Origin: Escherichia coli
GTDB lineage: Bacteria > Pseudomonadota > Gammaproteobacteria > Enterobacterales > Enterobacteriaceae
Direction: 5' to 3' (one strand)
Assembly: GCF_030013205.1 (NCBI RefSeq)
Contig: NZ_CP122648.1
Length of the DNA stretch: 64,000 nucleotides
Part shown: piece by piece, positions 1 through 62,892 of the stretch
How positions within the stretch are numbered: the stretch's first letter is position 1
How the letters are laid out: every line of letters begins with the position of its first letter
Made by a program: the position numbers and the translations under genes
Notes under the pieces: generated by a model
Told to the model about the DNA's origin: nothing
The model's database searches: none
The model's input: the letters and a program-made list of their open reading frames with translations, nothing else

Positions 1-675
1 TTAGTTCCCGGCGATGTGCTGTACGTTCCCGCTGGTGGCTGGAATTTTCCACAATGGCAAGCCCCCGCCACTACCTTTAGCGTGCTGTTTGGCAAACAGC
101 AACTCGGCTTCAGCGTCGTGCAATGGGATGGCAAACAATATCAAAATCTGGCGAAGCAACACGTCGCCCGACGCGGCCCACGCATAGGTTCTTTTCTGCT
201 ACAAACGCTCAATGAAATGCAAATGCAGTCGCAGGAGCAGCAAACGGCAAGGCTTATCGTCGCCAGCCTGCTTAGCCACTGCCGCGATTTGCTTGGCAGC
301 CAAATCCAGACCGCCTCACGCAGCCAGGCACTATTCGAAGCTATTCGCGATTATATCGACGAACGCTATGCCTCCGCGCTTACCCGCGAATCTGTCGCAC
401 AGGCGTTCTATATTTCACCAAACTATCTCTCGCACCTGTTTCAAAAAACAGGGACCATTGGTTTTAACGAATACCTGAATCACACGCGACTGGAGCACGC
501 TAAGACGTTATTGAAAGGCTATGACCTGAAGGTAAAAGAAGTGGCGCACGCCTGCGGCTTTGTCGACAGCAACTACTTCTGCCGTCTGTTTCGTAAAAAT
601 ACCGAACGCTCACCGTCGGAATATCGTCAGCAGTACCACAGCCAACTGACAGAAAAACCGACTACTCCAGAATGA
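1..675 (+). CDS. yijO: AraC-family transcriptional regulator, C-terminal part (gene starts upstream of window)
   Basis: ORF 16..675 translation carries an AraC-type HTH signature at its C-terminus (…YLSHLFQKTGT…FCRLFRKNTERSPSEYR); frame is open back to base 1; position next to frwD matches the K-12 neighbourhood. Confidence 0.7.
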   Translation, partial: LVPGDVLYVPAGGWNFPQWQAPATTFSVLFGKQQLGFSVVQWDGKQYQNLAKQHVARRGPRIGSFLLQTLNEMQMQSQEQQTARLIVASLLSHCRDLLGSQIQTASRSQALFEAIRDYIDERYASALTRESVAQAFYISPNYLSHLFQKTGTIGFNEYLNHTRLEHAKTLLKGYDLKVKEVAHACGFVDSNYFCRLFRKNTERSPSEYRQQYHSQLTEKPTTPE

Positions 676-32779: not shown

Positions 32780-35156
<2,377 letters not shown>

Positions 35157-44479: not shown

Positions 44480-44526
44480 GATAAAAAAAACCCCCACATC
44501 ATGTGGGGGAAGACAGGGATGGTGTC
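44480..44526. repeat. prophage att site, fieF-side copy of 47-bp direct repeat
   Basis: GATAAAAAAAACCCCCACATCATGTGGGGGAAGACAGGGATGGTGTC, identical copy at 62846..62892; flanking bases diverge immediately outside. Confidence 0.85.
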
Positions 44527-44637
44527 ACAAAAAAGCACCTAACCTGATGATATAAATGGATTTATATCAAGCACTGTCCACATAGCGTCCACATCGACCA
44601 TAAATAAAGCCCCTCAACTGAGGGGCTATTTTTGTGA

Positions 44638-44856: not shown

Positions 44857-44937
44857 CGCGAGCACCTCTTCCGGTTTTGTTGATGGTGCCATTTTAGTTA
44901 ATTTACCCTTATAAAACAAACAGATAAAAACAAAACA

Positions 44938-46101: not shown

Positions 46102-46580
46102 TATCCCGCCCCCGTCATACCCGTGAATCTGGTCGCCATATTGCCGGCCTTACCGATGAGCGACTCCGCCTGTTTACCGATATCGCCATAAAGCGCGGCC
46201 AGTGATTCATCAACGCGGGTGAGCGACAGCGTAAAATCAATTTTTCGGGGTGTGCCATCTGCAAAGAAAATACTCCCTGTTTCACTCACCTTGCTGATGA
46301 CATACATGCCGTAAATCATTCCGGTGCCATCCAGCAACGGCCACGCCCGGCCTTCCTCTGCCATCAGTCTGAGCGTGGTCATCGTCAGCTTGCCGCCGGT
46401 CAGTTCGGGATAAAGCACACCGGCAAGCGTCATGTTTTCCTCGCCAACACCGAGAAACTGGTAGGCATCCCGTTTACCGATACGGGAATTTGACGGCCAG
46501 CGATAATCAGATTCACGCTGCATGGTCTGGTGTGGCAGCGTCTGGCGCATAAAAACAAACATACCTAACGCGAGCATCAT
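46101..46580 (-). CDS. U: tail protein U
   Basis: 159-aa ORF; start overlaps D stop (ATGA-type coupling). Confidence 0.8.
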   Translation of the reverse strand: MMLALGMFVFMRQTLPHQTMQRESDYRWPSNSRIGKRDAYQFLGVGEENMTLAGVLYPELTGGKLTMTTLRLMAEEGRAWPLLDGTGMIYGMYVISKVSETGSIFFADGTPRKIDFTLSLTRVDESLAALYGDIGKQAESLIGKAGNMATRFTGMTGAG

Positions 46581-46594
46581 TTTTCGTCACCTCC

Positions 46595-48142
46595 TTAACC
46601 GTCATGCATCATGCTGGCACGGGCGCGCGCACGTTTATCCCGCTCGTATTTTTCGAGCGCATCCTGTAACTGGCGGTCAAGCTGTGTCCCCGGCGCAGTA
46701 CCACCCGTCAGGCTGATGTGATATTCGTTTTTACTCTGGTCTACATAAGAGCGGCCAGCCGGTGCCGTGACCGGCTGATAAGCCTGATAGCCTGCATAAG
46801 AGCTGGTCGCCGGAATATAACCACCGGTGCCATACGTGGCGGCATGAGTTCTGGCGGCGGTCTGGTCAAGTGTGTCTGACTCTTTGTTGATAACACCGAG
46901 TTTTTCCAGTACCCAGTCAATACCGCTGCGCAGTTTGTTGAACGCATTAAGCGGCAGCATCAACGCGTCAGCCAGTGCCTGCCCGAACATGACGCCCGAA
47001 TCACGGCAACGGTTCAGGGTGTCCTGGGTGGCTTTGACCGGGGCAATCAGGTTTTTAAACCACTGCCACGCGGCCTGTAACTTTTCACCCAGCCAGTCAA
47101 ACAGCGGCTTAAGTGGCGTGAACAGTTCCCCCACCGGCGCAAATGCTGCTTTCAGCCCTTCAACCACACCGCCAAAGAATGCGCTGACAGGCTCCCAGTA
47201 TTTACGGATAAGCAACGCCCCGGCGACAATGGCGGCCACCACGGCCACAACCGGCCAGCTAATCGCCCCGATGGCCGTCATAACAGCACTGCCAACCGTC
47301 GTGAAGATTGCCCCCATTGCGCCTGCTGCCGCAATGATGGCATTGATGCCGGTGATAACCGGCCAGGCTACAAGACCAATTGCACCGATGATGCCAGTAA
47401 GCGCCAGTGCGCCACCGGCAATGATGCCGATAGTTGCCGCCAGTGATTTGTTTTTCTGTATCCAGCCGTCGAGTTTTAACACATACTTTGTGGCCGTCTG
47501 CGTGAGCTTACGCAGTGCGCCTTCCTGCTGGTCAAACAGGTCAGTCCCCACCGCTTCATAAGCGGACTGAAACTCCTTAAAGTCACCGCCGAGGTTGTCC
47601 TGCATGATTTTAACCAGCTCTTCCGTTTTACCGTCTGAGGCTTTCAGCGTGGCGGTCAGCTTATCCAGTTTTCCGCTTGCAGCCGCTGCCAGTAAAACGT
47701 TCGCTGATTTCAGGGCTTCCTCACCAAAAATGGTTTTAAGGTATTCCCCCTTCTGAGACGTTCCCAGCTTGTGTTTATCAAAGCTGACCTGAATCTCTTT
47801 CAGAATGGTGAACAACGGACGCATATTTCCCTTTTTGTCCGAGGTTTTAACGCCAAGCTCTTTGAGTGCTTCCCATGCTTTCCCTGTCGGAGCCTGTAAT
47901 CGGGTGACAACGGCACTACTCCCCGTACCCAGCATGGAGCCGATGCCGCACACCGCAGGCAGTGACAGGTCAGGAAACTGCACCAGAACAACACCGGCAA
48001 CCATCGAGACAAAACCACCGAGCAACATGCGCCCGATAAACAGACGCGGGGTGATGGGTTCACCACCGGCAAGCACCTTGCCGACAACAATCAGCACCCC
48101 AATCATGAAAAGCGACAGGACGCTTTTTTCTTCTGCTGTCAT
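46595..48142 (-). CDS. in-frame fusion: N-terminal holin (Y)-like membrane segment joined to C-terminal tape-measure (T) fragment
   Basis: 515-aa ORF starts 4 bp inside the X stop (Y position) with hydrophobic holin-like helices (SVLSLFMIGVLIVVGKVLAGG…) and ends just before U (T position) with Ala/Gly-rich tape-measure-like sequence; far too short for an intact T. Confidence 0.65.
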   Translation of the reverse strand: MTAEEKSVLSLFMIGVLIVVGKVLAGGEPITPRLFIGRMLLGGFVSMVAGVVLVQFPDLSLPAVCGIGSMLGTGSSAVVTRLQAPTGKAWEALKELGVKTSDKKGNMRPLFTILKEIQVSFDKHKLGTSQKGEYLKTIFGEEALKSANVLLAAAASGKLDKLTATLKASDGKTEELVKIMQDNLGGDFKEFQSAYEAVGTDLFDQQEGALRKLTQTATKYVLKLDGWIQKNKSLAATIGIIAGGALALTGIIGAIGLVAWPVITGINAIIAAAGAMGAIFTTVGSAVMTAIGAISWPVVAVVAAIVAGALLIRKYWEPVSAFFGGVVEGLKAAFAPVGELFTPLKPLFDWLGEKLQAAWQWFKNLIAPVKATQDTLNRCRDSGVMFGQALADALMLPLNAFNKLRSGIDWVLEKLGVINKESDTLDQTAARTHAATYGTGGYIPATSSYAGYQAYQPVTAPAGRSYVDQSKNEYHISLTGGTAPGTQLDRQLQDALEKYERDKRARARASMMHDG

Positions 48143-48145
48143 GCG

Positions 48146-48349
48146 TTACTCCCACAGATTGACAGTTTCAGCCACGGGCGCGGTCTGAACGTCGGGCAGT
48201 TCGACGGCGGTGCCGTGCGGCAGCACCGCGCCCAGTTCAGCCAGTCCCGGATTTGCGGCGAGCACGGCTTCGACCACGCCCTCAGTGCGCCCGTAATACC
48301 GGACACAGATGGCGTCGAGCGTGTCGCCCTGTAGCGCAAAGGTCTTCAT
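48146..48349 (-). CDS. X: tail protein X
   Basis: ORF trimmed to MKTFALQGDTLDAICVRYYGRTEGVVEAVLAANPGLAELGAVLPHGTAVELPDVQ… (67 aa). Confidence 0.85.
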   Translation of the reverse strand: MKTFALQGDTLDAICVRYYGRTEGVVEAVLAANPGLAELGAVLPHGTAVELPDVQTAPVAETVNLWE

Positions 48350-48858
48350 CAGATTTGACTCACGATGCAGCGCGGCTTGTCCTGGATGCGCGCCACCGCC
48401 CAGCGCATATCCCGCCACAGCTCATCAATGGTGCTGTCAATGCTGTCGGCCTTCTTGTCGCCTTTCGCACTGGCATCCACGCCGCGGTAACGCTCATAAA
48501 GCGACGCGGTCGCCATCGCACACACAGCGCGCTCGTAGTAAAAAACTTTGATGCTTTCACCGTCGATGTCGTCCGCCGGAACGTCCGCCAGACGCGTAAA
48601 ACCGGCGGCAATTTTCTGTTCGCGGTACTCGTACAGCTCCGCATTCGTTTCCGCCATGCCTGACTTGATGGCCTCACGCAGGCGGGCGGGGGCGACGGTC
48701 TGCTCAAGGCGCATACGTTCCCGGACACGCTTCGGGTCGATATCGGGAAAAAAGAACGTGTTTTTAATCACCGGCTCGTCGCCTGCCGGTTGCGGGATGA
48801 CCACCGTACCCTCACCGGACACGGGAGCCTCCTTTCGCGGAATAATCAGCGTCATCAT
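48349..48858 (-). CDS. L: capsid completion protein L
   Basis: ORF trimmed to MMTLIIPRKEAP (169 aa). Confidence 0.8.
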   Translation of the reverse strand: MMTLIIPRKEAPVSGEGTVVIPQPAGDEPVIKNTFFFPDIDPKRVRERMRLEQTVAPARLREAIKSGMAETNAELYEYREQKIAAGFTRLADVPADDIDGESIKVFYYERAVCAMATASLYERYRGVDASAKGDKKADSIDSTIDELWRDMRWAVARIQDKPRCIVSQI

Positions 48859-48957
48859 GACTACCTCTGAAAAGTCGGGCGGTGGACGCCGGTGCAGTGT
48901 CAGGTGATTCACCCTCACTGACCGGCGTGCCGCCCTGGCGCGGGGCGCATTCGGTTG

Positions 48958-49701
48958 TTAACTGGCTTTCTTTTTCGGGCGTCCACGTTTTGCCGGTGTC
49001 ACGCTCCGGGTCTTACGCGGGGTACGGGTGGCCGCTTTGGGCTGCGGCTCCGGCTTCGGTTTCAGCTCCCGCTCCAGTCGTTCAATCTCTTTTTTGACGC
49101 CTGCCTGACAGTCGAGCTGTGTCGCACGTTGCAGGTGAGCCAGCGCCCCTGCGGCATCACCAGCGTCACGCAGAAACAGACCGGTGATTTTGTGCAGTTT
49201 TGCGCGCACTTCATCAGGCATGTCAGCCGTGGCGGTCAGTTCGAGGGTGTCCATCAGCAGGCGGGGATCCACAGACTCACCGGCAGCGTGAGCGCGCATG
49301 GCCGCAAGCGCCACCTCCTCGGTGAACATGTACGGCGGGGTGCGGCGGTGTTTACCCGGCATGGTCAGACCGTACTTCAGGGCATAACGGGCAATCTCCA
49401 GCGCACCGGCAATATCGCCGGTATCCAGACGCCACAGCATGACCGTCATCAGAATGTCATCCTGTGCACCTTTGCCCTGCTCCAGCACGCCGTTCACCCA
49501 CGGCAACCAGAACGGCAGCAGTTCGCGTTTTTTCGCGGCCTTCAGCTCTTTTGAATAAATCGCTTTCAGTGTGCGCTGGTCTGCGGCGAGCTTAACCAGC
49601 ATCTGCTCATAGACAGTTGCATGTCGCAGCGGGGCGGCTTCCCGCTGCGCGGTCATCGCTGCCGAGACCCGCATCATGTGGCGCTGTGCGGGACTCGTCA
49701 T
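48958..49701 (-). CDS. M: terminase endonuclease (small) subunit M
   Basis: 247-aa ORF in the M position between L and N. Confidence 0.8.
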   Translation of the reverse strand: MTSPAQRHMMRVSAAMTAQREAAPLRHATVYEQMLVKLAADQRTLKAIYSKELKAAKKRELLPFWLPWVNGVLEQGKGAQDDILMTVMLWRLDTGDIAGALEIARYALKYGLTMPGKHRRTPPYMFTEEVALAAMRAHAAGESVDPRLLMDTLELTATADMPDEVRAKLHKITGLFLRDAGDAAGALAHLQRATQLDCQAGVKKEIERLERELKPKPEPQPKAATRTPRKTRSVTPAKRGRPKKKAS

Positions 49702-49704
49702 CGG

Positions 49705-50778
49705 TTACGCTCCCGGCTCTGCGGTCGCCCTGGCCGGTGTGGAGAAATCACCGACCTTAATTTTTTCCACCAGGCAACCGGCGGCGTAGTCTTCCACCAC
49801 GTAATCAATGTTCATTGACTCGTAGTTCTCCACGCGGTCGAGTTTCGGGTTTTCCTCAATCACGCGGCGATGGCTGTCATCCATGTAGTAGATGGACAGG
49901 TTTTCCAGCTTCGTGATGAGCATCGCATCCGCCGGGAAGTACGGGACGCGTACCGCCGGCAGGTTACCGATGCGTTTCTGGCTGATGATGACGTCAGCGG
50001 CCAGCATTTCGCTGTTGTCCTGCTCTTTGTTAACGATGGGGAAATACTTGTCCGCCAGTAGCTGACGCCCCACAATCACCACAAGGTCAGGGTCTTCCTG
50101 ATACCACGGCTCAATCAGGTTGTTGGTCGCATCCATCACCAGTGCATCAAGGCTGGCATAATCACCGCCCTTACCCACGCGGATAACCTCAGAGGTGGTG
50201 CGGCCTTCCTCGTCAGTGACCTTGCTCATCACACGCGCCGGGGCTTCATTGCGGTATTTCTGCAGCCAGCCAACCGCCACATCCTGCAGCATCGGATTGC
50301 TGCTGCGGTCAGAGGTTTCGGCACGCTTCACGCCGTTAAAACCGGCCATGATGAAATCAAGGGACTGGCGTTTGATAATGGCGTTACGGATACGGAGCTG
50401 GAAATCCTGATAACGCGCCCACAGGTCAAGCGTTTTGTAGCGGATATAAAAATCGAAGTTAATCTGGTCGCATTCGTACTTGTTAGACGCCAGCTTCGAG
50501 AAGTCCTTCGGCTGACGCTCGGTGCCACCGGCGGTGTCGGTGGTGCTGGCGATGGAGCCGGTGACACCGATACCAATTTTTTCCCCTTTCATTTCGCTGA
50601 CCGGCACAATGTTGATGCGGGTCAGAAAATCAGAGGACTCCTGCATGGTGTTCATCAGGGTCTGGGTGACCGACGGTTCAACGGTGAATTTTTTCGACAC
50701 ATCACCGGCGTCGATGCCGTTCAGTTCGGCAACACGGGACAGGTAGGCATTAAATTTAAAGCGGGTTTCCTGGCGCAT
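49705..50778 (-). CDS. N: major capsid protein N
   Basis: 357-aa ORF. Confidence 0.85.
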   Translation of the reverse strand: MRQETRFKFNAYLSRVAELNGIDAGDVSKKFTVEPSVTQTLMNTMQESSDFLTRINIVPVSEMKGEKIGIGVTGSIASTTDTAGGTERQPKDFSKLASNKYECDQINFDFYIRYKTLDLWARYQDFQLRIRNAIIKRQSLDFIMAGFNGVKRAETSDRSSNPMLQDVAVGWLQKYRNEAPARVMSKVTDEEGRTTSEVIRVGKGGDYASLDALVMDATNNLIEPWYQEDPDLVVIVGRQLLADKYFPIVNKEQDNSEMLAADVIISQKRIGNLPAVRVPYFPADAMLITKLENLSIYYMDDSHRRVIEENPKLDRVENYESMNIDYVVEDYAAGCLVEKIKVGDFSTPARATAEPGA

Positions 50779-50836
50779 AGTTTTTCCTGAAATTAAGGGT
50801 TAATCGTGAAGGTTTTTCCGGACTGACTGACGCCGG

Positions 50837-51691
50837 TCAGCAGTTCGTCATCAGGGCGTCACCGCCACCGCCGGTGGCCTTGCTGCGGCGCTGCTGGGTC
50901 AGACTTTCGGTGTGGTCGAGACTGTTTTTCAGGCGGGTGAATGCCTGGCTGGTTTCATCCGCCCTGTCAGTCACCTCCTGCTTAAGTGCGGAAAAGGCGG
51001 TTTCCATCTCAGCGAGGCGCTGCTCAGTGGCGCTCAGCTTTTCCTGCACATGTTCAGCAACAGCGGTCACCGCTTCATGCACATCATTCAGACGGGCGTC
51101 ATCGCTGGCCTGTTTGCGGCCAAAAATGGATTTCACCTTTTCGGTCAGGGCGGTGAACACGGTTTCAGGCAGGTCTTCAAATTCCAGCTCAACAGGCGTT
51201 GCCACTGAAATCAGGTTTTCAGGGCTTAATTTGAAGCGGTTCAGGGGGTTGTGTTTTGCCGTGCGGCAGAATTCCAGGTATTCCGTGCCGAGGCTTGCCG
51301 GGTCATCGGTGACGGCCAGACCCACCAGATAACATTTGCCGGTATTGGCAAAGTTCGGCTGAATTTCCATTGAGGTATAGACCTTCTGCGCGGCCTTGTT
51401 CATCGCGATAAGGTCATCGGTCGGGGTGATTTTCGCAAACAGCGCCCATTTGCCTTTCAGCGCCGAATCGTCATCAATCTTTTCGGCCTTCAGTTCAACC
51501 ACATCGCCATAACGTTTAAAAATACCGTCAGGCAGGATGCCGCGCAGATGTTCCAGGTTAATGCGGCAACCATAGACGCGCGGGTCAAAGGTTTCAGCCA
51601 TTTCCTGAATATCCTGCGCACTGATGACACGCCCGTCACAGGTGTCACCCTCAACGCCGATACGAAAGAATTTTGAGACTTTTTTTGCCAT
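50837..51691 (-). CDS. O: capsid scaffolding protein O
   Basis: ORF trimmed to MAKKVSKFFRIGVEGDTCDGR (284 aa). Confidence 0.8.
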   Translation of the reverse strand: MAKKVSKFFRIGVEGDTCDGRVISAQDIQEMAETFDPRVYGCRINLEHLRGILPDGIFKRYGDVVELKAEKIDDDSALKGKWALFAKITPTDDLIAMNKAAQKVYTSMEIQPNFANTGKCYLVGLAVTDDPASLGTEYLEFCRTAKHNPLNRFKLSPENLISVATPVELEFEDLPETVFTALTEKVKSIFGRKQASDDARLNDVHEAVTAVAEHVQEKLSATEQRLAEMETAFSALKQEVTDRADETSQAFTRLKNSLDHTESLTQQRRSKATGGGGDALMTNC

Positions 51692-51864
51692 TGTCAGGAG
51701 TCCTGAATAGTGATTAGAGGAGTCACATGTCGGCATCAGTTTCCCGACGATGCGCATCCTCCGCCATCAGTCCCGGATGGCTTATCACTGACACAACAGC
51801 ACCTTAGCGAATCGCGGGGCGCGACTCAGTAGGCTTGCCGTGTATTCATCACGGCGAGGTATTC
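51692..51864. promoter_or_regulatory. divergent phage late promoter region (O-operon and P-Q operon; Ogr-dependent)
   Basis: intergenic region between divergent O and P; call is by position in the P2 map, no operator motif confidently identified. Confidence 0.4.
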
Positions 51865-53637
51865 ATGACCATCACCACAGACACCACTCTTTTACACGAC
51901 CCGCGTCGTCAGGCGGCGCTGCTGTACTGGCAGGGGTTTTCCGTGCCGCAGATTGCCGCCATGTTGCAGATGAAACGCCCGACGGTGCAGAGCTGGAAAC
52001 AGCGCGACGGCTGGGACAGCGTTGCCCCCATCAGCCGTGTCGAAATGAGTCTGGAAGCGCGGCTGACCCAGCTCATCATCAAACCGCAGAAAACCGGCGG
52101 TGACTTCAAGGAAATTGACCTGCTCGGACGCCAGATTGAACGGCTGGCACGGGTCAACCGTTACAGTCAGACCGGCAACGAGGCAGACCTTAATCCGAAC
52201 GTCGCTAACCGCAACAAAGGCGGGCGTCGCAAACCGAAAAAGAATTTTTTCAGCGACGAAGCCATCGAAAAGCTGGAGCAGATTTTCTTTGAGCAGTCTT
52301 TCGACTATCAGTTGCACTGGTATCGCGCCGGGCTTGAGCACCGCATCCGCGATATCCTGAAATCCCGCCAGATTGGCGCGACGTTTTATTTTTCCCGCGA
52401 GGCGCTGCTGCGTGCCCTGAAAACCGGTCATAACCAAATTTTTCTGTCGGCCAGTAAAACGCAGGCGTATGTGTTCCGCGAATACATCATCGCCTTTGCC
52501 CGTCTGGTTGACGTTGACCTGACCGGTGACCCGATTGTCCTGGGCAATAACGGCGCAAAACTGATTTTTCTCGGCACCAACTCCAACACCGCGCAGAGCC
52601 ATAACGGCGACCTGTACGTCGACGAGATTTTCTGGATCCCGAATTTTCAGGTACTGCGTAAGGTGGCATCAGGTATGGCCTCACAGAGCCACCTGCGCTC
52701 GACCTATTTCTCCACCCCGTCCACGCTGGCGCACGACGCCTACCCATTCTGGTCGGGTGAACTGTTCAACCGGGGACGCGCCAGCGCCGCTGAACGCGTG
52801 GAAATCGACGTCAGTCATAACGCCCTTGCCGGGGGGCTTCTCTGTGCGGACGGCCAGTGGCGGCAGATTGTCACCATTGAGGACGCCCTGAAAGGTGGCT
52901 GCACGCTGTTCGACATTGAGCAGCTCAAACGTGAAAACAGCGCCGACGATTTTAAAAACCTGTTCATGTGTGAATTTGTTGACGACAAGGCGTCGGTGTT
53001 CCCGTTCGAGGAGCTGCAACGCTGCATGGTCGACACGCTGGAAGAATGGGAAGACTATGCGCCGTTTGCCGCCAATCCGTTCGGCTCCCGCCCGGTATGG
53101 ATTGGTTACGACCCGTCACACCGTGGCGACAGCGCCGGATGCGTGGTGCTGGCACCGCCGGTGGTGGCCGGAGGTAAATTCAGAATACTTGAGCGTCACC
53201 AGTGGAAAGGCATGGACTTTGCCACTCAGGCGGAATCCATCCGCAAACTCACCGAAAAATACAACGTCGAATACATCGGAATTGATGCCACCGGCCTCGG
53301 TGTCGGCGTGTTCCAGCTCGTGCGCTCGTTCTATCCCGCCGCGCGCGATATCCGCTACACGCCGGAAATGAAAACCGCAATGGTGCTCAAGGCAAAAGAC
53401 GTCATCCGCCGTGGCTGTCTGGAATATGACGTCAGCGCCACCGACATCACCAGCTCGTTCATGGCTATCCGCAAGACCATGACCAGCAGCGGACGCAGCG
53501 CCACCTATGAGGCCAGCCGTAGCGAGGAAGCCAGCCACGCCGACCTCGCCTGGGCGACCATGCACGCCCTGTTAAATGAGCCACTCACCGCCGGTATCAG
53601 CACCCCGCTGACATCCACCATTCTGGAGTTTTACTGA
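51865..53637 (+). CDS. P: terminase ATPase (large) subunit P
   Basis: ORF trimmed to MTITTDTTLLHDPRRQAALLYWQGFSV (590 aa). Confidence 0.9.
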   Translation: MTITTDTTLLHDPRRQAALLYWQGFSVPQIAAMLQMKRPTVQSWKQRDGWDSVAPISRVEMSLEARLTQLIIKPQKTGGDFKEIDLLGRQIERLARVNRYSQTGNEADLNPNVANRNKGGRRKPKKNFFSDEAIEKLEQIFFEQSFDYQLHWYRAGLEHRIRDILKSRQIGATFYFSREALLRALKTGHNQIFLSASKTQAYVFREYIIAFARLVDVDLTGDPIVLGNNGAKLIFLGTNSNTAQSHNGDLYVDEIFWIPNFQVLRKVASGMASQSHLRSTYFSTPSTLAHDAYPFWSGELFNRGRASAAERVEIDVSHNALAGGLLCADGQWRQIVTIEDALKGGCTLFDIEQLKRENSADDFKNLFMCEFVDDKASVFPFEELQRCMVDTLEEWEDYAPFAANPFGSRPVWIGYDPSHRGDSAGCVVLAPPVVAGGKFRILERHQWKGMDFATQAESIRKLTEKYNVEYIGIDATGLGVGVFQLVRSFYPAARDIRYTPEMKTAMVLKAKDVIRRGCLEYDVSATDITSSFMAIRKTMTSSGRSATYEASRSEEASHADLAWATMHALLNEPLTAGISTPLTSTILEFY

Positions 53638-54671
53638 TGAGCAAGAAAAAAGGGAAAACACCGCAACCTGCGGCAAAAAAAATGACCGCCAGCGCCCCGA
53701 AAATGGAGGCATTCACCTTTGGTGAGCCGGTGCCGGTACTCGACCGCCGTGACATTCTGGATTACGTCGAGTGCATCAGTAACGGCAGATGGTATGAGCC
53801 ACCAGTCAGCTTTACCGGTCTGGCAAAAAGCCTGCGTGCTGCCGTGCATCACAGCTCACCGATTTACGTCAAACGCAATATTCTGGCCTCGACATTTATC
53901 CCACATCCGTGGCTTTCCCAGCAGGATTTCAGCCGCTTTGTGCTGGATTTTCTGGTGTTCGGTAATGCGTTTCTGGAAAAGCGTTACAGCACCACCGGCA
54001 AGGTCATCAGACTGGAAACCTCACCGGCAAAATATACCCGCCGTGGTGTGGAAGAGGATGTTTACTGGTGGGTGCCGTCCTTCAACGAGCCGACAGCCTT
54101 CGCGCCCGGTTCCGTGTTTCACCTGCTGGAGCCGGATATTAATCAGGAGCTGTACGGCCTGCCGGAATATCTCAGCGCCCTTAACTCTGCCTGGCTGAAT
54201 GAGTCAGCCACGCTGTTCCGCCGCAAGTATTACGAAAACGGCGCTCATGCCGGATACATCATGTACGTCACCGATGCCGTGCAGGATCGCAACGATATCG
54301 AAATGCTTCGCGAAAACATGGTTAAGTCGAAAGGCCGCAACAACTTTAAAAACCTGTTTCTCTATGCCCCGCAGGGGAAAGCTGACGGCATTAAAATTAT
54401 CCCGCTCAGTGAAGTGGCGACGAAGGACGATTTTTTTAATATCAAAAAAGCCAGTGCCGCAGACCTGCTGGACGCGCACCGCATCCCCTTTCAGTTGATG
54501 GGCGGCAAGCCGGAGAACGTCGGGTCGCTGGGTGATATTGAGAAAGTGGCAAAGGTCTTTGTCCGCAATGAGCTTATCCCGTTACAGGACAGGATTCGGG
54601 AAATAAACGGCTGGCTCGGTCAGGAGGTCATCCGCTTTAAAAACTACTCACTGGACACTGACAACGGCTGA
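53637..54671 (+). CDS. Q: portal protein Q
   Basis: 344-aa ORF; start overlaps P stop. Confidence 0.9.
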   Translation: MSKKKGKTPQPAAKKMTASAPKMEAFTFGEPVPVLDRRDILDYVECISNGRWYEPPVSFTGLAKSLRAAVHHSSPIYVKRNILASTFIPHPWLSQQDFSRFVLDFLVFGNAFLEKRYSTTGKVIRLETSPAKYTRRGVEEDVYWWVPSFNEPTAFAPGSVFHLLEPDINQELYGLPEYLSALNSAWLNESATLFRRKYYENGAHAGYIMYVTDAVQDRNDIEMLRENMVKSKGRNNFKNLFLYAPQGKADGIKIIPLSEVATKDDFFNIKKASAADLLDAHRIPFQLMGGKPENVGSLGDIEKVAKVFVRNELIPLQDRIREINGWLGQEVIRFKNYSLDTDNG

Positions 54672-54676
54672 ACATC

Positions 54677-54698
54677 GCCGCCTGCGGGCGGCTTTTTT
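54677..54698 (+). terminator. rho-independent terminator after Q
   Basis: GCCGCC-TGCG-GGCGGC followed by TTTTTT. Confidence 0.6.
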
Positions 54699-54840
54699 AC
54701 ACCCTGTCATCACGCCCTCACACGCTCACCACCGCACAAAACACCCCGCAGACACACCAACGCCTCAACGGGCAGACTAAACGCCGTCACGACGCGCTCA
54801 GACGCTGAAAAAATAAAATCAGCACCACCGCCAGCGCGCA

Positions 54841-54859
54841 GTGCTTTCCCCGCCTCGCC
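54841..54859. other. cos site (19-nt cohesive-end sequence)
   Basis: GTGCTTTCCCCGCCTCGCC is the reverse complement of GGCGAGGCGGGGAAAGCAC, the P2/186 cohesive end as I recall it; lies between Q and the cargo, as in the P2 map. Confidence 0.55.
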
Positions 54860-54987
54860 CGCCCGCTTCATGGGTCGGTTTTAATGCAGGTGCATGAACA
54901 CACTGGAGACGCACCAGTACTGGCGGTGGTCACGTAGATCCGCCCCTTAAAAGCCATGCAGAATAATGCAACTATTGCGGGCGTCGG

Positions 54988-55407
54988 CTAATCATCTTCT
55001 AAAGGTGGAATTTTGATGCCACTAATTAGCAGTACTTTCCGGTATGCCTCAAAAATAATGTTGTGTGTTTTTTGTAAATCATCGAGCATTTTTTGCCGTC
55101 CTGCTGGGGTATCTTTGGCAAAATTATGAGCGCGAAAAAAATCATGTGCCAAGTAGTTTCTGGCTTTAAGAGCATCTGACACATACTCCAGTGTATCAGC
55201 ATCCTCCACCATCCTAGACTTCAGTGCGTAATTCAATTTACCCAGCGTGTATTTATCCATTTCTAAAAACTGTTTTTTCAGCGACTGTATATCTTTCCCC
55301 TGACTCATATCATACTCAGTGATAACATTTATCAACTCAGTCTCCAGTAATTGAGCTGCTTCCGAAGCATAACCAAATTTCCAATAAACCGTATCAAGCG
55401 TCACCAT
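54988..55407 (-). CDS. hypothetical cargo protein with R-x4-H (HEPN-like) motif
   Basis: 139-aa ORF in AT-rich DNA, codirectional with and downstream of the HNH gene; contains ARNYLAHDFF. Confidence 0.6.
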   Translation of the reverse strand: MVTLDTVYWKFGYASEAAQLLETELINVITEYDMSQGKDIQSLKKQFLEMDKYTLGKLNYALKSRMVEDADTLEYVSDALKARNYLAHDFFRAHNFAKDTPAGRQKMLDDLQKTHNIIFEAYRKVLLISGIKIPPLEDD

Positions 55408-55498
55408 ATAATCTATTCCCCATATAACAAATCACACCCAAAATTAAATCATAACACATAATTAAATCTAACGCCTCTCTGCACCAGAAGAAGTCATG

Positions 55499-56830
55499 TT
55501 AACGCTTATCATGGAACTTTTTCCATTTTGTCATCAACTTTCCAGCATCAAGTTCTACATGATGCGGTTGTAGAGTTTTACCCTCAAACATAGTTTTGTG
55601 GATACAATTAATAGAGAAATGAACCGTTAAGTCCTCTGGATTAATCCCCATTAATCCTTTATCAAACATTCGGTGTAAACTTACTTCAAGTAACAGGCCA
55701 TTAGATGTGTTATTATTTGCTGATTCTGTTATTGCTTCAATATGTGCGGCTTCCAATATCCCCTCTGGCAATGGATAGCCAGTAATAGCACATCTGCCAT
55801 TGAAGTTATCCCAAACACGGCGTTTGAAATCAGCTTGATCTCCAGCATGACGGACTTTGTGAGTAACCTCGACTGTTCGTCCTGTAGCACAGGTATCGTT
55901 TGCGGCCTTGAAAGGATTAATTAGACTTTCATTAATGGCTATATCCGTTCCATCCATGATAAGAGATATTTCATTATTGGGTTCGGGTGATGTTAATGGA
56001 CTTATGTACTGATTGCTTAAAAAAGTCATACTAGATTCTTCATCAGTCGCGAGTTTCCACGCTTCTGATTGTGTCATTGTTAGCAATGCCGTTTGATAAA
56101 CTTGCTTATTAAAATAACGTTTATCTTTCTTGTAACTCCCCATATTAATAGTACTAGATTTAATCGGAAGTGTTTTATCACCAATTAGTAGATCACGTAT
56201 TTCTACAGTCTCTTCTAAGGTATCAATAGGAGCTACTATAGGGTTAGTAAACGGGTTATCTACATGATCTACGTGGTTGTGTCGTAAATGCCACTCTATA
56301 GCACTATCTTTTATATGTATCTCGCAGACAGGGCATACAATAAGCCCCATAGATGTTACAGGTAGCTTTTTGCCACCGATTAAGCGTAATGTATTTGCAT
56401 TCTGGTTATGTACTTTCTTTTGGTTCTGTGTCAGTACACTACGCTTAGCCTCTAAACGGGTCGGAATCTTAGCAAGATTAAGCGATTTACGGCTCTCTTG
56501 TCTCTCAAGATCATAGATCCGAATCCCTGCTTCAGTTTTGATTTTTGTCCACATAGAGATAGAACTAAGGAATTTATGTCCATGTACTTTTTCATAATCA
56601 GCATAAGCTTGCAAAGTAGCAGTGGAACTATCTAATCCTTTTTTACGGAGTGCTGTATATTGCTGAAAAAGATTAATAGCATGAGCTGTAATAGAGCGCC
56701 TATTCTCTATAATTTGCGCTTTTTTTGCTGCTTGTTCTGCTTGCAATGCTTTTTGTTCAGGGGTAAGCGACTTCTTTTTGGCTTTCTTGGTTCTTTTCTT
56801 ACTCAAAGTTTTCTTACTGTTATTGTTCAT
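55499..56830 (-). CDS. HNH nuclease-domain cargo protein (Lys-rich N-terminus, C2H2-like zinc finger, C-terminal HNH)
   Basis: 443-aa ORF; N-terminus SKKTLSKKRTKKAKKK; CPVCEIHIKDSAIEWHLRHNH; C-terminus GRCAITGYPLPEGILEAAHIEAI…SNGLLLEVSLHRMFDKGLMGI resembles the HNH endonuclease core; AT-rich. Confidence 0.7.
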   Translation of the reverse strand: MNNNSKKTLSKKRTKKAKKKSLTPEQKALQAEQAAKKAQIIENRRSITAHAINLFQQYTALRKKGLDSSTATLQAYADYEKVHGHKFLSSISMWTKIKTEAGIRIYDLERQESRKSLNLAKIPTRLEAKRSVLTQNQKKVHNQNANTLRLIGGKKLPVTSMGLIVCPVCEIHIKDSAIEWHLRHNHVDHVDNPFTNPIVAPIDTLEETVEIRDLLIGDKTLPIKSSTINMGSYKKDKRYFNKQVYQTALLTMTQSEAWKLATDEESSMTFLSNQYISPLTSPEPNNEISLIMDGTDIAINESLINPFKAANDTCATGRTVEVTHKVRHAGDQADFKRRVWDNFNGRCAITGYPLPEGILEAAHIEAITESANNNTSNGLLLEVSLHRMFDKGLMGINPEDLTVHFSINCIHKTMFEGKTLQPHHVELDAGKLMTKWKKFHDKR

Positions 56831-56939
56831 TTTGCAAGCCTTTAATCTAATTCATGGAAAGGGGCATTCACTTGCCCTGTATCCAGTAAACTGACATAAC
56901 ACGATATAAGCAAGCTCCGTAATTCTTTCATGTTAATCA

Positions 56940-59258
56940 TCAATGGTCCATTGTGAATCCCGGCCACTCATCAGCGACCGGATACGTGAATTTTTTACCG
57001 TCGTAATTTACAGTCGCGCCACGCGCCAGCGCCTCAAGCTCCCATCTCTGAGGCCTGATACCGTTCTGAGCAAGGTCTACGCGGATACGGGTAATTTGCA
57101 TTCGTTCTGACCGGGTCAGTCTGGCCGATGGTGCAATTTCATGCGGTTTTAACGGGCTTCCGTTTCTTTGCTGACGGTTTGGCGTTCTCAGGTCGTATTT
57201 TAATGCGCCCCTGAGCGCCCTCACGACCTCCGGTTCATTCCATTCAATAACACCGTCATCAACCAGATTAAGCACTGCTGCGGCGTGCTCAGAAGGAGTG
57301 GGAGCCGGTAACGAAGTATCACCGCTGGTGAGCTTTCCACAGTTATTGACAGGACTCCGAGGCGCGGCGATGCCGCTTTTTAAAGTCAAAGGCTCAACGA
57401 CCGGAACTTTCGGCACAATGCGCCAGTCCGTCGTTCTGGTGATATGAATATGACGCGCGCCGAGATGCGGCGCGTAAATGCCGACCACTCTCTCGACTTC
57501 TTCCTCGTATTCGTTAACGTCATCCGACGGGCTACGGGCGACCCTGACAGTCTGACAATCGCGCGGGACATTTGCCCCGCCCTGCGCGCTGATATACAGC
57601 GCAAAATCGCCACTGTCTGCGGCGGCGCGTGCAGCCTCCACGCGTTCGTCAAATTCATCAGCAATGCTGACGCCGCGAGGCAATTTACGTAGCTCACGGT
57701 AAGCTCCCATTGTCGGCAGGCCAACCGTTTTAAATTGCGGGATGCGCCACGTTGATGCCCATGCGGTAACAGCCGCCGCAGTATCTTTCAGCGGTCTGCC
57801 GGTATCGTTATCGAGCTGACCATCCAGTGCATAGCCGTCGATATTTTTTGAAATGTATTTCGCGATATATCCCGCAGCACCGCCCCGGTTAAGGTGTTTT
57901 GCCTGAAAACGGTTTCGCGCGGCTCCTCTTTCGTCGCCATCCTCTTTGAGCGCATAGCGACGCATGATTTCGATAATCTGGTTACGCTGGCGTGGATTAC
58001 AAAAAAGCATCATATGCCAGTGCGGCGTTCCGTCGTGGTGTGGCTCGACGACTCGCAAACCGTAGACCTGTAAATCATTATCCTTGAATGCCGTGCGCAT
58101 CAGGCTCCAGATACGGCAGAGATAACGCTGCGCATCCTTTGGATTAAATGCCTCATCATTCCAGCCGTGATTAAGCTGGACGGTTTTATTTTCGCCTTTT
58201 CCGACCTGACGTGTCGGGTGATACTTTGACGGCGCGGTAAGCGTGATAAACATCCCCACATCACCCTCTGAGGCGGCGTAACGCTCAATACCGGCAATGG
58301 TGTTCATCAGCTCCATCCGGCGAATTTCAGGATTAGAAATACTGCCCATCACCTTACTGATAAGGTCGATGCGCTCGCCGGTTTCCCTGTTTTCAAGGTC
58401 ACACGATTTAAGAAATTCCAGATTTGCCTGGCGGCGCGCACGCACATCACGAATGGCGTGTTTACTGGCATAAGGAGAACGGTCTTTATTGACCTCCCCG
58501 ACAGCTATCAGTAACGCTTCATGCCAGCGCATACGCTGGCCTTTAAGCTGATGAGTCCACCACTCATCGTTAAACAGACGGGCAATTGCAGAATATGCCT
58601 GCCTCGTGGTCATCTGTCCTTTACGGTATTTTTTCCAGTAGAGAGGGGAAATATTGAAAGCACGTGCAGCACCAGCAACATGACCATAGAGGTGAGCCTG
58701 CGCCTCATCCGTAAACAGCGATTCTTTTTCGCCATGCGCATCCACCCAGGCATCGCTGAGTTCCTCATACATCATGAAAAGCTGCGATGAGATACGGGCA
58801 GCAAACTTTTTCAGCTCCTTGTCATTCATTCCCGGCAGGCGCGCATAGTGGTCACGCTCTGCCAGAAACAGTAACGACGCGTCGGTGTTCATTTCATGGC
58901 GCTGATTCACACGCTCAATGCGCGGCCATAAACGACGCTGAAAAGTGGATGTGAGGAAATAAAACCCGTGCACCGGGCTTTTATTGCGCCGGATGTAGTC
59001 ATAGCGTGAAGTAAACAGCGAGCGCAAAAAGTAAGGCAGGCGGTTAATCGTGGATAAAACACCTTGCACCTGACGCATCTCGTCACGTGTAAGGGGTCTT
59101 TCGCGCCCGACAGCCTCGCGTGGCGCGTTCCATGCATAAGCACCTGTAAACGCCTTACCGGTGCCTGCGGCAAATGCTGACGGAGGGACAAAACGTCCGG
59201 AGGCTTTAACGGCCATGTGAGCCAAAAGCCTCTGAACAACGCTTGCTGAGTTGCTCAA
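56940..59258 (-). CDS. A: replication initiation endonuclease A (rolling-circle Rep)
   Basis: 772-aa ORF in the P2 A position; true start may be a few codons downstream. Confidence 0.85.
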   Translation of the reverse strand: MSNSASVVQRLLAHMAVKASGRFVPPSAFAAGTGKAFTGAYAWNAPREAVGRERPLTRDEMRQVQGVLSTINRLPYFLRSLFTSRYDYIRRNKSPVHGFYFLTSTFQRRLWPRIERVNQRHEMNTDASLLFLAERDHYARLPGMNDKELKKFAARISSQLFMMYEELSDAWVDAHGEKESLFTDEAQAHLYGHVAGAARAFNISPLYWKKYRKGQMTTRQAYSAIARLFNDEWWTHQLKGQRMRWHEALLIAVGEVNKDRSPYASKHAIRDVRARRQANLEFLKSCDLENRETGERIDLISKVMGSISNPEIRRMELMNTIAGIERYAASEGDVGMFITLTAPSKYHPTRQVGKGENKTVQLNHGWNDEAFNPKDAQRYLCRIWSLMRTAFKDNDLQVYGLRVVEPHHDGTPHWHMMLFCNPRQRNQIIEIMRRYALKEDGDERGAARNRFQAKHLNRGGAAGYIAKYISKNIDGYALDGQLDNDTGRPLKDTAAAVTAWASTWRIPQFKTVGLPTMGAYRELRKLPRGVSIADEFDERVEAARAAADSGDFALYISAQGGANVPRDCQTVRVARSPSDDVNEYEEEVERVVGIYAPHLGARHIHITRTTDWRIVPKVPVVEPLTLKSGIAAPRSPVNNCGKLTSGDTSLPAPTPSEHAAAVLNLVDDGVIEWNEPEVVRALRGALKYDLRTPNRQQRNGSPLKPHEIAPSARLTRSERMQITRIRVDLAQNGIRPQRWELEALARGATVNYDGKKFTYPVADEWPGFTMDH

Positions 59259-59481
59259 CCTGCACGTTTAAATCAGCAAAAGACTTTGCGCTTCCGGTCA
59301 GAATATCGTGATGCATCAGGCCTGAAACGAGCTGGCTTAATTTCGGGTAATAACCAACCACCGCCAGCCATTCCTGACCGGCGTTTTTACCGCTTTCAGC
59401 TCTCTTTTTCTCGTGGAGAATAAACTGAAAGCTGTCACTGGTAACGACATAACGTTCGCCAATTTCAATACGAATACTCAT
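59206..59481 (-). CDS. hypothetical early-region protein (P2 orf83-like position)
   Basis: 91-aa ORF, tightly packed codirectional array between B and A. Confidence 0.45.
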   Translation of the reverse strand: MSIRIEIGERYVVTSDSFQFILHEKKRAESGKNAGQEWLAVVGYYPKLSQLVSGLMHHDILTGSAKSFADLNVQVEQLSKRCSEAFGSHGR

Positions 59482-59702
59482 GCCGTTCTCCGGTAATGTT
59501 TGTTTTTTGCTTCAAAGACTGACTGACAGGAAACACAACGCGTGGCTGACGGGTAAGCCGCACGACGGGCAGCAGGTATTGGCGCGTCACACTCTTCGCA
59601 AACCAGCGCAGAAGCACCGCAATGTTTTACCCTTGCCGCGTTAATCTGGCGCTCCAGTAATTCAGCCTGTTGTTCCTGAATAAAATCTACGTTGTCCGGC
59701 AT
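59478..59702 (-). CDS. TraR/DksA-type C4 zinc-finger protein (P2 orf82-like)
   Basis: 74-aa ORF with CEEC…CVSC zinc finger (CGASALVCEECDAPIPAARRAAYPSATRCVSCQ). Confidence 0.6.
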   Translation of the reverse strand: MPDNVDFIQEQQAELLERQINAARVKHCGASALVCEECDAPIPAARRAAYPSATRCVSCQSVFEAKNKHYRRTA

Positions 59703-60007
59703 TACCAGTTCCTTTTGTCGTTCAGTTTTTTAAATTCATCAGCGCAATAGCTGGCGATTTCTGTCGTTAATTTCGTCAGTTCATCCACGGAGGAAATTTG
59801 CTTGTGAAATACAGCGCGTTTAACAAGTAAATTGACCACATCAGACAGGAGGTTTAATTCACTCTGATAAATCGCGATAACAGATTCAGTTATTTCGCGT
59901 TTTTCTTTATCAAGACCAAGTTGAATAAGAGACAAATCGCCATTTTTCATAACGGCGATTTTTAAGGCATTGTTCAGTAAAACAACTGAACGAGAACAGG
60001 ACATCAA
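59702..60007 (-). CDS. hypothetical early-region protein
   Basis: 101-aa ORF; start/stop overlaps with neighbours. Confidence 0.45.
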
Positions 60008-60261
60008 AGCACCTCCCCGCGAGACAATCCGATGTTGTGAAATTTTTCCGACTCCTGACTGAGCAGCTCGACTATCTCCACGCGGGATAACTCCGCCTTT
60101 GTGATGTGGCGAATCATGGCGTCAAGATGAGAAGAAAAGCGCGTCGCTGCATCGGCCTGTGCTTCGGTTCTGGCCTGTTGCAGCAGTAATGCGTATTTAC
60201 CGCACTGATTTTCAGAAACTGTATGCATGACTTTCTCCAGGCAAAAAGAAGCCCCGCACAA
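60004..60261 (-). CDS. hypothetical early-region protein
   Basis: 85-aa ORF; translational coupling to the next ORF. Confidence 0.45.
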
Positions 60262-60291
60262 TTAAGTGCGTTAAAAACTCTGGTTAATTAC

Positions 60292-60798
60292 TTAATGCAG
60301 ATATTGCTCTGGTTTTACCGACGTCAGAATTGTCGGTGCATACTCAAACAGGCTGAATAATTCACGTAATGCACGGAATAAAGCATCACGCCAGTAACAT
60401 GACTCTTCATTAATTCGCCAGTATGGCTGGTTGAATTCTTTTTCAGTCAATCCGGCATGCATAAATAAAGTGCGACGCTGACTGACTGTTAAAAAACTAA
60501 TATATGCATACTCACTTGCGCCAACCTGACGGCGTTTTGAGAATGCCCCACGCAATTCATCAATTGCACAAACCAGCCGTTCACGTTCGACGTCGTTCAT
60601 TTCTTCAAAACGCATCGTTGCGTGACGCTGTTTTAACTGCGCATGAAAGCAAACCGTTAGCCGTTCGCGCTCCATCATCTGATTATAATAATCACATGTA
60701 TCCTGCCAGCGAGGAACGGCAAGATGCTTACCAATTATCCGGCGCATAGCTGCTGGCTGTTTTTCAACGAGATTGAGCGTCATCACTGTCATTTCCAT
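60292..60798 (-). CDS. B: replication protein B (helicase loader-like)
   Basis: 168-aa ORF in the P2 B position downstream of cox. Confidence 0.7.
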   Translation of the reverse strand: MEMTVMTLNLVEKQPAAMRRIIGKHLAVPRWQDTCDYYNQMMERERLTVCFHAQLKQRHATMRFEEMNDVERERLVCAIDELRGAFSKRRQVGASEYAYISFLTVSQRRTLFMHAGLTEKEFNQPYWRINEESCYWRDALFRALRELFSLFEYAPTILTSVKPEQYLH

Positions 60799-60961
60799 AC
60801 CCTCCGGCTTTTCAGAAAGGTCAGAGCCTTTTTTAACGGACTCTGTTTTTTGGTGCGGATAATGATTCCCTTACGCCCCTTACCGTGGGTGATGGTGAAG
60901 TCAATCGCCCTTGGGCTTTCGTTACGCAGTAACTGAGCAATACAACGCGGTTCACTCATAA

Positions 60962-61234
60962 TCACAACCCCATCCACAAAAGCCATGCATCACGCTGTTC
61001 AACTGGTCGGTTATAAAACGCCTCTCGTACAGCGCGATTAAACTCTGGAATGAAAACCCACTTCTCACCGACACGAGCGTTCGGCTTACTTGGATCACGA
61101 AGCTCAATAACTGGCAATTTATTCTCTTTTACCATCTTGACTACAGCCGTTTCTGGCTTACCAAGTAACTCTGCAAACTTAACCGTATGTACCGCATCAA
61201 TCGGGTACTGAATCACATAGTCATTGACTTCCAT
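60962..61234 (-). CDS. cox: Cox excisionase / early-operon regulator
   Basis: 90-aa ORF ending …WLLWMGL, divergent from the C repressor. Confidence 0.7.
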   Translation of the reverse strand: MEVNDYVIQYPIDAVHTVKFAELLGKPETAVVKMVKENKLPVIELRDPSKPNARVGEKWVFIPEFNRAVREAFYNRPVEQRDAWLLWMGL

Positions 61235-61386
61235 TGATTAGCCCTTTTTGCTTTCGTGTTACCCTTATTAGATCCAGTCCCTTCTAGGTCGCCCCTGTCC
61301 TTTCTAGGGACTGGCTAACACACTCAAAAGGTCACCAATACACAACCTTTTGACGGGAATATAAGTCACCAATAGGTTACTGTCAA
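61235..61386. promoter_or_regulatory. immunity switch region (divergent early promoter and repressor promoter with operators)
   Basis: 152-bp intergenic region between divergent cox and C; inverted repeats (…CCAGTCCCTTCTAGG…CCTTTCTAGGGACTGG…). Confidence 0.5.
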
Positions 61387-61680
61387 ATGCAGACATTCGA
61401 AAAACTGAAAGCGATTAGGAAAGCAGAAGGCTTAACACAGGCGAAATTCAGCGAAATTAGCGGGATAGCTCTAGGAACAGTCAAAAATTACGAAAGTGGG
61501 CATAAAGACCCTGGTCTCAGCATCGTTATGCGAGTCACAAATACGCCTTTATTTAAAAAATATACGCTCTGGTTAATGACTGGTGATACGTCACCACAAG
61601 CTGGTCAGATCGCGCCGGCTCTCGCACACATTGGGCAAAAACCAACAGAATCAGACCACTCCGAAAAACAGACTGGTTAA
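61387..61680 (+). CDS. C: immunity repressor C
   Basis: 97-aa ORF with HTH (EGLTQAKFSEISGIALGTVKNYESG) and …KYTLWLMTGD…GQIAPALAHIGQ resembling P2 C. Confidence 0.8.
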   Translation: MQTFEKLKAIRKAEGLTQAKFSEISGIALGTVKNYESGHKDPGLSIVMRVTNTPLFKKYTLWLMTGDTSPQAGQIAPALAHIGQKPTESDHSEKQTG

Positions 61681-61719
61681 CACTCTATAAACATTATATT
61701 TTCACCATTTGTTACCAAG

Positions 61720-62730
61720 ATGGTGAATACAGCGTCAGAGGGCTTTCTTATGTCAATTAAGAAGCTCGATGATGGACGCTATGAAGTGGACATTAGACCT
61801 CGCGGTCGCGACGGAAAACGCATCCGCAGGAAATTTGAAAGAAAAGCTGAGGCTGTAGCATTTGAGCGATACACAATCGCCTACGCCAGCCAGAAAGAAT
61901 GGGCAGGTCAGCGAGCAGATCGCAGAACTTTGAGTGAGTTGCTGGACATCTGGTGGAAATATCACGGGCAAAACCACGAGCATGGAACAAAAGAGTTTAA
62001 TCATCTGCTCAAAACCATCAGCGGCATAGGTGATATACCAGTGAGCCGGATGAGCAAAAGAGCTTTGATGGATTATCGTTCCATGCGACTACGTGATGGT
62101 ATCAGTGCCGCAACGATAAACCGTGACATGTACCGATTATCCGGCATGTTCACAAAATTAATTCAATTGGATGAATTTTCCGGGCAACACCCAATTCACG
62201 GACTGCCGCCACTGGCGGAGGCCAACCCTGAAATGACGTTCCTGGAAAAAGCAGAAATCGAAAAACTGTTAAATGTTTTGGATGGTGATGACTTACTTGT
62301 CGCACTTTTATGTCTGAGCACTGGAGGAAGATGGACGGAAGTTGCCACGCTAAAACCAGCACAGATTACAAATTGCAGGGTTACCTTCCTGAAAACCAAA
62401 AACGGTAAAAAGCGAACCGTGCCGATTTCTGAGGAACTGGAGAAAAAAGTTAAAGAGGAGGCCAGCGCTAAATTATTCAAAGTTGATTATGAGAAGTTTT
62501 GCGGGATTTTACGCAGAGTGAAGCCAGATATACCACCCAATCAGGCAACCCACATCCTGCGGCATACATTCGCAAGCCATTTCATGATGAATGGGGGCAA
62601 TATAATCGCACTGCAACAGATTCTGGGACATGCGAGCATTCAGCAGACGATGGCCTATGCGCACCTTGCGCCTGACTACCTGCAAAATGCCGTCGCGCTG
62701 AATCCTCTAAAAGGCGGAGTGACGTTATAA
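61720..62730 (+). CDS. int: tyrosine integrase
   Basis: 336-aa ORF; C-terminal catalytic motifs (HILRHTFASHFMMNGG…LGHASIQQTMAYAHL); alternative start at 61750 (MSIKKLDDGRYE). Confidence 0.9.
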   Translation: MVNTASEGFLMSIKKLDDGRYEVDIRPRGRDGKRIRRKFERKAEAVAFERYTIAYASQKEWAGQRADRRTLSELLDIWWKYHGQNHEHGTKEFNHLLKTISGIGDIPVSRMSKRALMDYRSMRLRDGISAATINRDMYRLSGMFTKLIQLDEFSGQHPIHGLPPLAEANPEMTFLEKAEIEKLLNVLDGDDLLVALLCLSTGGRWTEVATLKPAQITNCRVTFLKTKNGKKRTVPISEELEKKVKEEASAKLFKVDYEKFCGILRRVKPDIPPNQATHILRHTFASHFMMNGGNIIALQQILGHASIQQTMAYAHLAPDYLQNAVALNPLKGGVTL

Positions 62731-62845
62731 ATTTCCCTTCTGAGTGTCCACATAGTGTCCACACTCTCAGAACTTTGTAGCCCTTCCAGTCCCTTATAGG
62801 TTTTCTTAAGTTACTGTTTTCTTACGGAAACTGATGTAAGTGATT

Positions 62846-62892
62846 GATAAAAAAAACCCCCACATCATGTGGGGGAAGACAGGGATGGTGTC
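62846..62892. repeat. prophage att site, cpxP-side copy of 47-bp direct repeat (also the cpxP terminator)
   Basis: identical to 44480..44526; on the minus strand reads as GC hairpin CCCCCACATGATGTGGGGG followed by TTTTTTTT, 24 bp after cpxP stop. Confidence 0.85.

Follow-up and report, generated by a model that had tools for sequence, protein, structure and literature searches.

The window, the whole 64-kb stretch of Escherichia coli DNA analysed here, contains a P2-like prophage in which a short non-coding region and a two-gene insert lie between the portal gene Q and the replication gene A. Gene Q (53637-54671, plus strand, 344 aa; Pfam Phage_portal, 3e-14) presents its 3′ end to the non-coding region and falls inside a 97.9% alignment with P2 1-6932, where P2 Q (187-1221) is part of the colinear stretch. 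Beyond the Q stop codon at 54671 comes tQ, the intrinsic terminator of the P-Q operon (54677-54699, plus strand), with a GC stem (GCCGCC-TGCG-GGCGGC) and a T-run that align with the annotated P2 tQ at 160-181. The cos site follows, with its 19-nt cohesive end at 54841-54859, then the insert, and finally A (56940-59258, minus strand; Pfam Phage_GPA, 1e-123), the far boundary of the variable hotspot; this is the gene order of P2-family cos regions. A sequence-only reading of the locus had placed cos between Q and a variable cargo, as in P2, where old and tin fill the slot, and the gene order agrees with it. The same reading had called the region a spacer, a label we abandon: tQ and the cos region occupy nearly all of the 316 bp between Q and the cargo, so this is not spacer in the sense of filler.

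To establish what the 19-mer is, we aligned it to authenticated P2-family cos sequences, and it matched. On the plus strand it reads GTGCTTTCCCCGCCTCGCC; the reverse complement of 54841-54859, GGCGAGGCGGGGAAAGCAC, agrees at 19/19 positions with both cosL (1..19) and cosR (33575..33593) in the annotation of P2 (NC_001895), and the records of Wphi and P4 begin with the identical 19 bases. A megablast comparison with phage genomes showed that the base equivalent to window position 54859 is where the linear Wphi and phage 11W records stop. The element is therefore the P2 cohesive end in minus-strand orientation, as had been proposed, and the predicted site of staggered terminase nicks. The proposal had named P2 and 186 together, and here only the P2 part holds exactly: the annotated 186 cos, GGCGTGGCGGGGAAAGCAT, differs from the window 19-mer at two positions (17/19). 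The 19-mer is single copy in the 64-kb window even when up to three mismatches are allowed, a tolerance at which shuffled sequences lead one to expect 0.04 matches.

The sequences around the cohesive end divide into a core and two dissimilar arms. The 55-bp core (54834-54888, minus strand) consists of TGCATTAAAACCGNCCCNNNAAGCGGGCG, the 19-mer and NGCGCGC; it matches P2 at 53/55 positions, counted on alignments, and is common to P2, Wphi, 186, PSP3 and P4. A citing paper (PMC5694545) attributes this core to Ziermann and Calendar 1990. The left arm (54700-54833), delimited by alignments to P2 and Wphi, is non-coding and C-rich on the plus strand (57 C, 21 G). It is common to P2 and Wphi; in global alignment the 100 bases adjoining the core are 94% identical to P2, and left arm and tQ are overall 94-97% P2-like; P4 diverges directly after the core and does not have the left arm. 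The right arm (54889-54987, minus strand), defined by motif conservation, contains a CCAGTACTGG palindrome at 54914-54923 and a TGCAT-N5-TGCAT element at 54956-54970. It reaches to about 54975, with the TGCAT array extending to 54970.

Several other features of this region were considered and set aside. The core is bracketed by an 11-nt perfect inverted repeat (54824-54834/54920-54930), but across 101 unique loci among the matches listed the longest complementarity between left and right arms averaged 6.0, against 5.8 with shuffled partners; as this is no better than shuffling, the repeat is probably fortuitous and we treat it as chance. A 53-aa open reading frame running across cos (54710-54871, minus strand) is regarded as spurious and would be split in virion DNA. 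We also discounted a terminator-like minus-strand hairpin after the 19-mer (54837-54822), which has a weak stem with only three GC pairs. Rfam returned no match in 54300-57200, and the predicted RNA folding of 54790-54990 was no better than that of shuffled sequences (z -0.9).

Searching the window by BLAST with the complete P2 genome places these elements in a prophage. P2 1-6932 is colinear with window 54859-47926, so the alignment begins exactly at the cos end; P2 33546-33593 matches 54888-54841; and P2 26290-30299 matches 60960-56951 at 97.6%. This layout shows that the P2-like prophage lies inverted in the window and that cos is internal, which is what the prophage permutation predicts. 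The element is bounded by 47-bp att core repeats in exact direct orientation, at 44480-44526 (ogr end) and 62846-62892 (int end), both on the plus strand; the repeat reads GATAAAAAAAACCCCCACATCATGTGGGGGAAGACAGGGATGGTGTC and includes a hairpin-like CCCCCACATCATGTGGGGG. The prophage thus spans 44480-62892, or 18.4 kb, and a near-identical locus lies between fieF and cpxP in strain K_EC180. The cognate terminase genes are in the same element as cos: P, encoding the large subunit that acts on cos (51835-53637, plus strand), is an intact open reading frame within the 97.9% alignment (P2 P is 1221-2993), and M, encoding the small or endonuclease subunit (48958-49701, minus strand), is an intact 247-aa frame colinear with P2 M (5157-5900).

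This prophage is extensively deleted. BLAST also locates a junction, at 47926-47941, between P2 position 6932 (holin gene Y) and position 20951 (tape-measure gene T); an imperfect 16-bp microhomology lies at this joint. The missing ~14 kb (P2 6932-20951) comprises K, the lys genes, R and S as well as parts of Y and T, and all baseplate, fibre, sheath and tube genes have gone with it. The frames of P, M, Q, N, O and L are intact, and terminase, portal, capsid, replication, immunity and integrase genes are all kept as intact frames. Six porcine ETEC genomes have this joint too, with 100% identity; because these closely related genomes are the only ones with it, the deletion appears to be a recent clonal event. 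The sister strain K_EC180 (NZ_CP062203, 18377-19038) has the same cos and cargo with a larger deletion that has removed most of P and all head genes, and this shows stepwise decay of the prophage lineage. Judged from its gene content, the prophage is a defective, tail-less deletion remnant. With tail and lysis genes lost, it would form no infectious particles without a helper P2-like phage.

To see which parts of the cos region are conserved beyond the reference phages, we scanned IMG/VR with a pattern for the core, which gave at least 120 loci, 103-109 of them unique and with enough flanking sequence. Among the matches listed (109 unique loci), two stretches that the search pattern left free, TGCATT at -29 and TGCGCGC at +19..+26, hardly vary. 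Across 103 unique loci among the matches listed, TGCAT occurs at -29 in 97, at -101/-100 in 86, at -111/-110 in 80 and at -121 or -124 in 58. In 83 of the 103 unique loci among the matches listed, the paired form TGCAT-N5-TGCAT is found at a distance of 85-140 bp to the right of the nick; it was never found elsewhere in the 660 bp of flanking sequence per locus in that set. In the window, the copy at 54956-54970 is the sole occurrence in 64 kb, and the core-end TGCAT is at 54884-54888; P2, Wphi, 186, PSP3 and P4 all have the paired element.

These patterns bear on which side of the nick is recognised. Conservation around the 19-mer reaches unequally far to the two sides (about -125 to +26), and P4 has only the core and right arm in common with P2-type cos. 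P4 is packaged by the P2 terminase. We therefore infer that terminase or an accessory factor recognises the right arm, with its phased TGCAT motifs at -29, -101 and -111, which would make this arm a counterpart of lambda cosB; such a right-arm recognition sequence may already have been mapped in Ziermann and Calendar 1990. The window combines a P2-type left arm with a right arm of the 186 type, a combination that we considered as a mark of recombination. Among the matches listed, however, 63 loci have a P2-type left arm, of which 30 carry a 186-type right arm and four a P2-type one. This combination is the commonest, so we dropped the idea, and it is the P2 reference that has the unusual right arm.

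On the far side of the right arm the base composition changes abruptly. The GC fraction is 0.587 in 54700-54987 and 0.655 in the 55-bp core, compared with 0.557 in the late genes and 0.521 in the whole window; it is 0.377 in the cargo (54988-56939) and 0.532 in gene A. One maximum-likelihood change point, at 54988 (0.549 to 0.383), coincides exactly with the stop codon of the first cargo frame; the other, at 56958 (0.369 to 0.552), is at the 3′ end of gene A, where homology to P2 sets in again (window 56951 = P2 30299). A sharp GC shift beyond about 54990 had been noted by eye, and the computed change point confirms it. From a start 18 bp past the final conserved motif of cos, the 2.0-kb AT-rich insert extends as far as A, with open reading frames at 54988-55407 and 55499-56830 followed by A. 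The cargo thus adjoins cos on one side and A on the other, in the known hotspot, as had been claimed.

This slot has a high turnover. Some part of 54600-57100 is matched by 2159 of 5426 complete E. coli genomes, but only 11 of the 5426 match at least 80% of it, that is, carry this cargo. In other prophages the cos-adjacent slot holds DUF2971 and hypothetical genes, or old and tin. Rousset et al. 2022 (PMC9122126) describe the region between gpA and gpQ, adjoining cos, as a hotspot: across 18,150 E. coli loci they counted 1,650 arrangements of genes, of which many are anti-phage. Supplementary file 6 of that paper includes an 'HNH_2 + hypothetical' arrangement with WP_023281582. This accession is the RefSeq identifier of the 139-aa protein in an identical locus. 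The arrangement of HNH_2 with the 139-aa protein is not among the systems reported as cloned and active in section 10 of the paper's main text (PMC9122126).

Both cargo genes are on the minus strand, read towards cos and are co-directional with A; the old-tin transcript of P2 runs in the opposite direction, starting near cos and reading towards A. The first gene (54988-55407) encodes a protein of 139 aa belonging to the PSP3 gp38 family. It had no Pfam or NCBIfam match and falls in phrog_12893, a cluster of unknown function; 37 homologues, mostly from Enterobacteriaceae, were found. In a 24-sequence alignment of this family, R83, N84, L86 and H88 (R83-N-x-L-x-H88, or RNxLxH) and the block E16-AAQLLE-x-EL are invariant, and AlphaFold confidently predicts an all-helical protein (pLDDT 90). 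HEPN proteins have a conserved R-x4-6-H motif, located on a helix within an up-down bundle of four helices. With its RNxLxH motif the 139-aa protein looks HEPN-like and may belong to this superfamily.

The history of this first gene appears tied to cos. PSP3 gp38 and homologues in other prophages end at the same distance from cos as the 139-aa gene, and DNA homology to PSP3 (74%) runs unbroken from the right arm into the gene, which argues that the two were inherited as a block. Such joint inheritance may hold for phages of the P2, 186 and PSP3 types. The upstream neighbours differ: an HNH gene here, DUF2971 and hypothetical genes in CCUG 73778, and gp37 and TumAB in PSP3. With such changing neighbours, the 139-aa gene looks like a stand-alone gene.

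The second cargo gene (55499-56830) encodes 443 aa with a C-terminal HNH_2 nuclease domain (Pfam HNH_2, 8e-11, residues 347-397), and RefSeq names the product 'HNH endonuclease signature motif containing protein'. It matched generic HNH models of PADLOC, whose one other match in the cargo, to PD-Lambda-3_B, was weak (E 0.002). Further weak matches were to NF045808 (PT-DNA restriction), below the model cut-off, and to the 'HNH endonuclease' of PDB 6yex, which we take to be the modification-dependent enzyme VcaM4I. Type IV HNH restriction enzymes join a C-terminal HNH_2 nuclease to an N-terminal reader domain for modified DNA. No recognisable reader domain was found in the N-terminal ~320 residues of the 443-aa protein. 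The N-terminal region has a CPVC...HxxxH zinc-finger-like motif. A type IV-like, modification-dependent restriction enzyme is a reasonable guess for this protein, and both cargo genes are probably anti-phage or exclusion genes.

Among the closest characterized systems are P2 and Wphi. With these the locus shares the 19-nt end, the core (53/55), tQ, the left arm (94-97%) and the position between Q and a variable region next to A. The window departs from the P2 reference more than 29 bp right of the nick, where it resembles the right arm of the 186/PSP3 type. The contents of the slot also differ, since P2 has old and tin reading away from cos together with orf91, whereas the window has two other genes reading towards cos and no orf91. 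The cos regions of 186 and PSP3 (Eganvirus) have the same architecture, with about 67-72% identity in the right arm over -95..-29 and TGCAT motifs at equal positions, and PSP3 gp38, at the same distance from cos, is 72% identical in amino acids and 74% in DNA to the 139-aa gene. In 186, in contrast, the cohesive end differs at 2/19 positions and the left arm and late genes are divergent. P4 (NC_001609) has the identical 19-mer, the 55-bp core, the right-arm TGCAT motifs and a variable hotspot adjoining cos, but the sequence left of its cos is unrelated, and it is on this left side, not the right, that P4 has its hotspot (gop, beta, cII). The gpA-gpQ hotspot of P2, the old-tin region as described in PMC9122126, corresponds in location, anomalous GC content and high turnover. 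Lambda cos (cosQ-cosN-cosB) is alike in the established features of staggered terminase nicks and one-sided recognition; it has no sequence relationship to the site described here, its ends are 12 nt rather than 19 nt long, and the terminases belong to different families.

By analogy with established P2 biology, a packaging pathway can be proposed for this site. Excision and replication would yield circular phage DNA; P2 has been reported to package from circular monomers. Terminase, formed by the gpM and gpP that the prophage encodes intact, would recognise cos and nick it twice, 19 bp apart at 54841-54859, leaving 5′ single-stranded ends GGCGAGGCGGGGAAAGCAC. The DNA would be threaded into the procapsid through the gpQ portal and, after injection, the ends would anneal and recircularise the genome.

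We are highly confident that 54672-54987 is a full P2-like (Peduovirus) cos region with tQ, adjoining a known hotspot in a prophage deleted for tail and lysis genes. One might suppose that the 19-mer is GC-rich sequence that matches by chance and plays no part in packaging; this idea gains something from the general GC-richness of the region, and has no other support. It is nevertheless so improbable as to be negligible, given the 0.04 matches expected with up to three mismatches and the conservation of the 55-bp core, the motif array and the gene order around the 19-mer. Very unlikely, too, is that the site belongs to a P4-like satellite or another hitch-hiker inserted beside the phage genes. 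P4 does have the identical 19-mer and 55-bp core, and P4-like elements also have a cos-adjacent hotspot. Yet tQ and the left arm resemble P2 and run on without a break into Q, P, O, N and M, whereas P4 diverges directly after the core, and on the opposite side of cos the flank leads to the same prophage's gene A. At the near-identical K_EC180 locus, moreover, RefSeq annotates a single integrase, that of the phage, which lies at the end of the prophage; between Q and A it annotates no homologue of psu, sid, delta or the alpha primase.

A further alternative concerns the activity of the site, not its identity, and is compatible with its being a P2-like cos: cos would be intact in sequence but a functionally idle relic, kept only because the deletion is recent. 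Loss of P2 6932-20951, a joint confined to six closely related porcine ETEC genomes at 100% identity, and the still greater loss of late genes in K_EC180 all favour this. On the other side, the terminase, portal, capsid, replication, immunity and integrase frames are intact and the att repeats perfect; tails and lysis could come from a P2-like phage resident in the same cell or superinfecting it, and about 40% of the E. coli genomes in the collection have P2-like sequence. We regard an idle cos as a serious possibility, though somewhat short of probable. The P2-like cos itself is intact in sequence, and we predict that it could give transducing particles only with a helper P2-like phage.

The identification of cos anchors the map of this prophage, fixing the ends of the virion genome, the packaging signal and the limits of the hotspot (54988 to about 56951). 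With these limits fixed, the pair of cargo genes can readily be singled out for defence assays. Both cos and the adjoining hotspot are canonical, already-known P2 biology; as this is textbook material and the hotspot was surveyed in 2022, the finding adds annotation rather than discovery, and the defective state of the prophage is added context to a known kind of site. What deserves attention is the cargo gene pair and, more speculatively, mobilisation of a tail-less, cos-bearing remnant by a helper phage. Only tentatively do we put forward two readings jointly, which together we think rather doubtful: that the cargo pair are anti-phage genes, the 443-aa protein having an N-terminal sensor domain, and that the remnant is a helper-dependent element mobilised through cos. 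If this is true, an 18.4-kb tail-less remnant, with its cos, terminase, capsid, replication and integration modules, could carry the cargo genes between strains.
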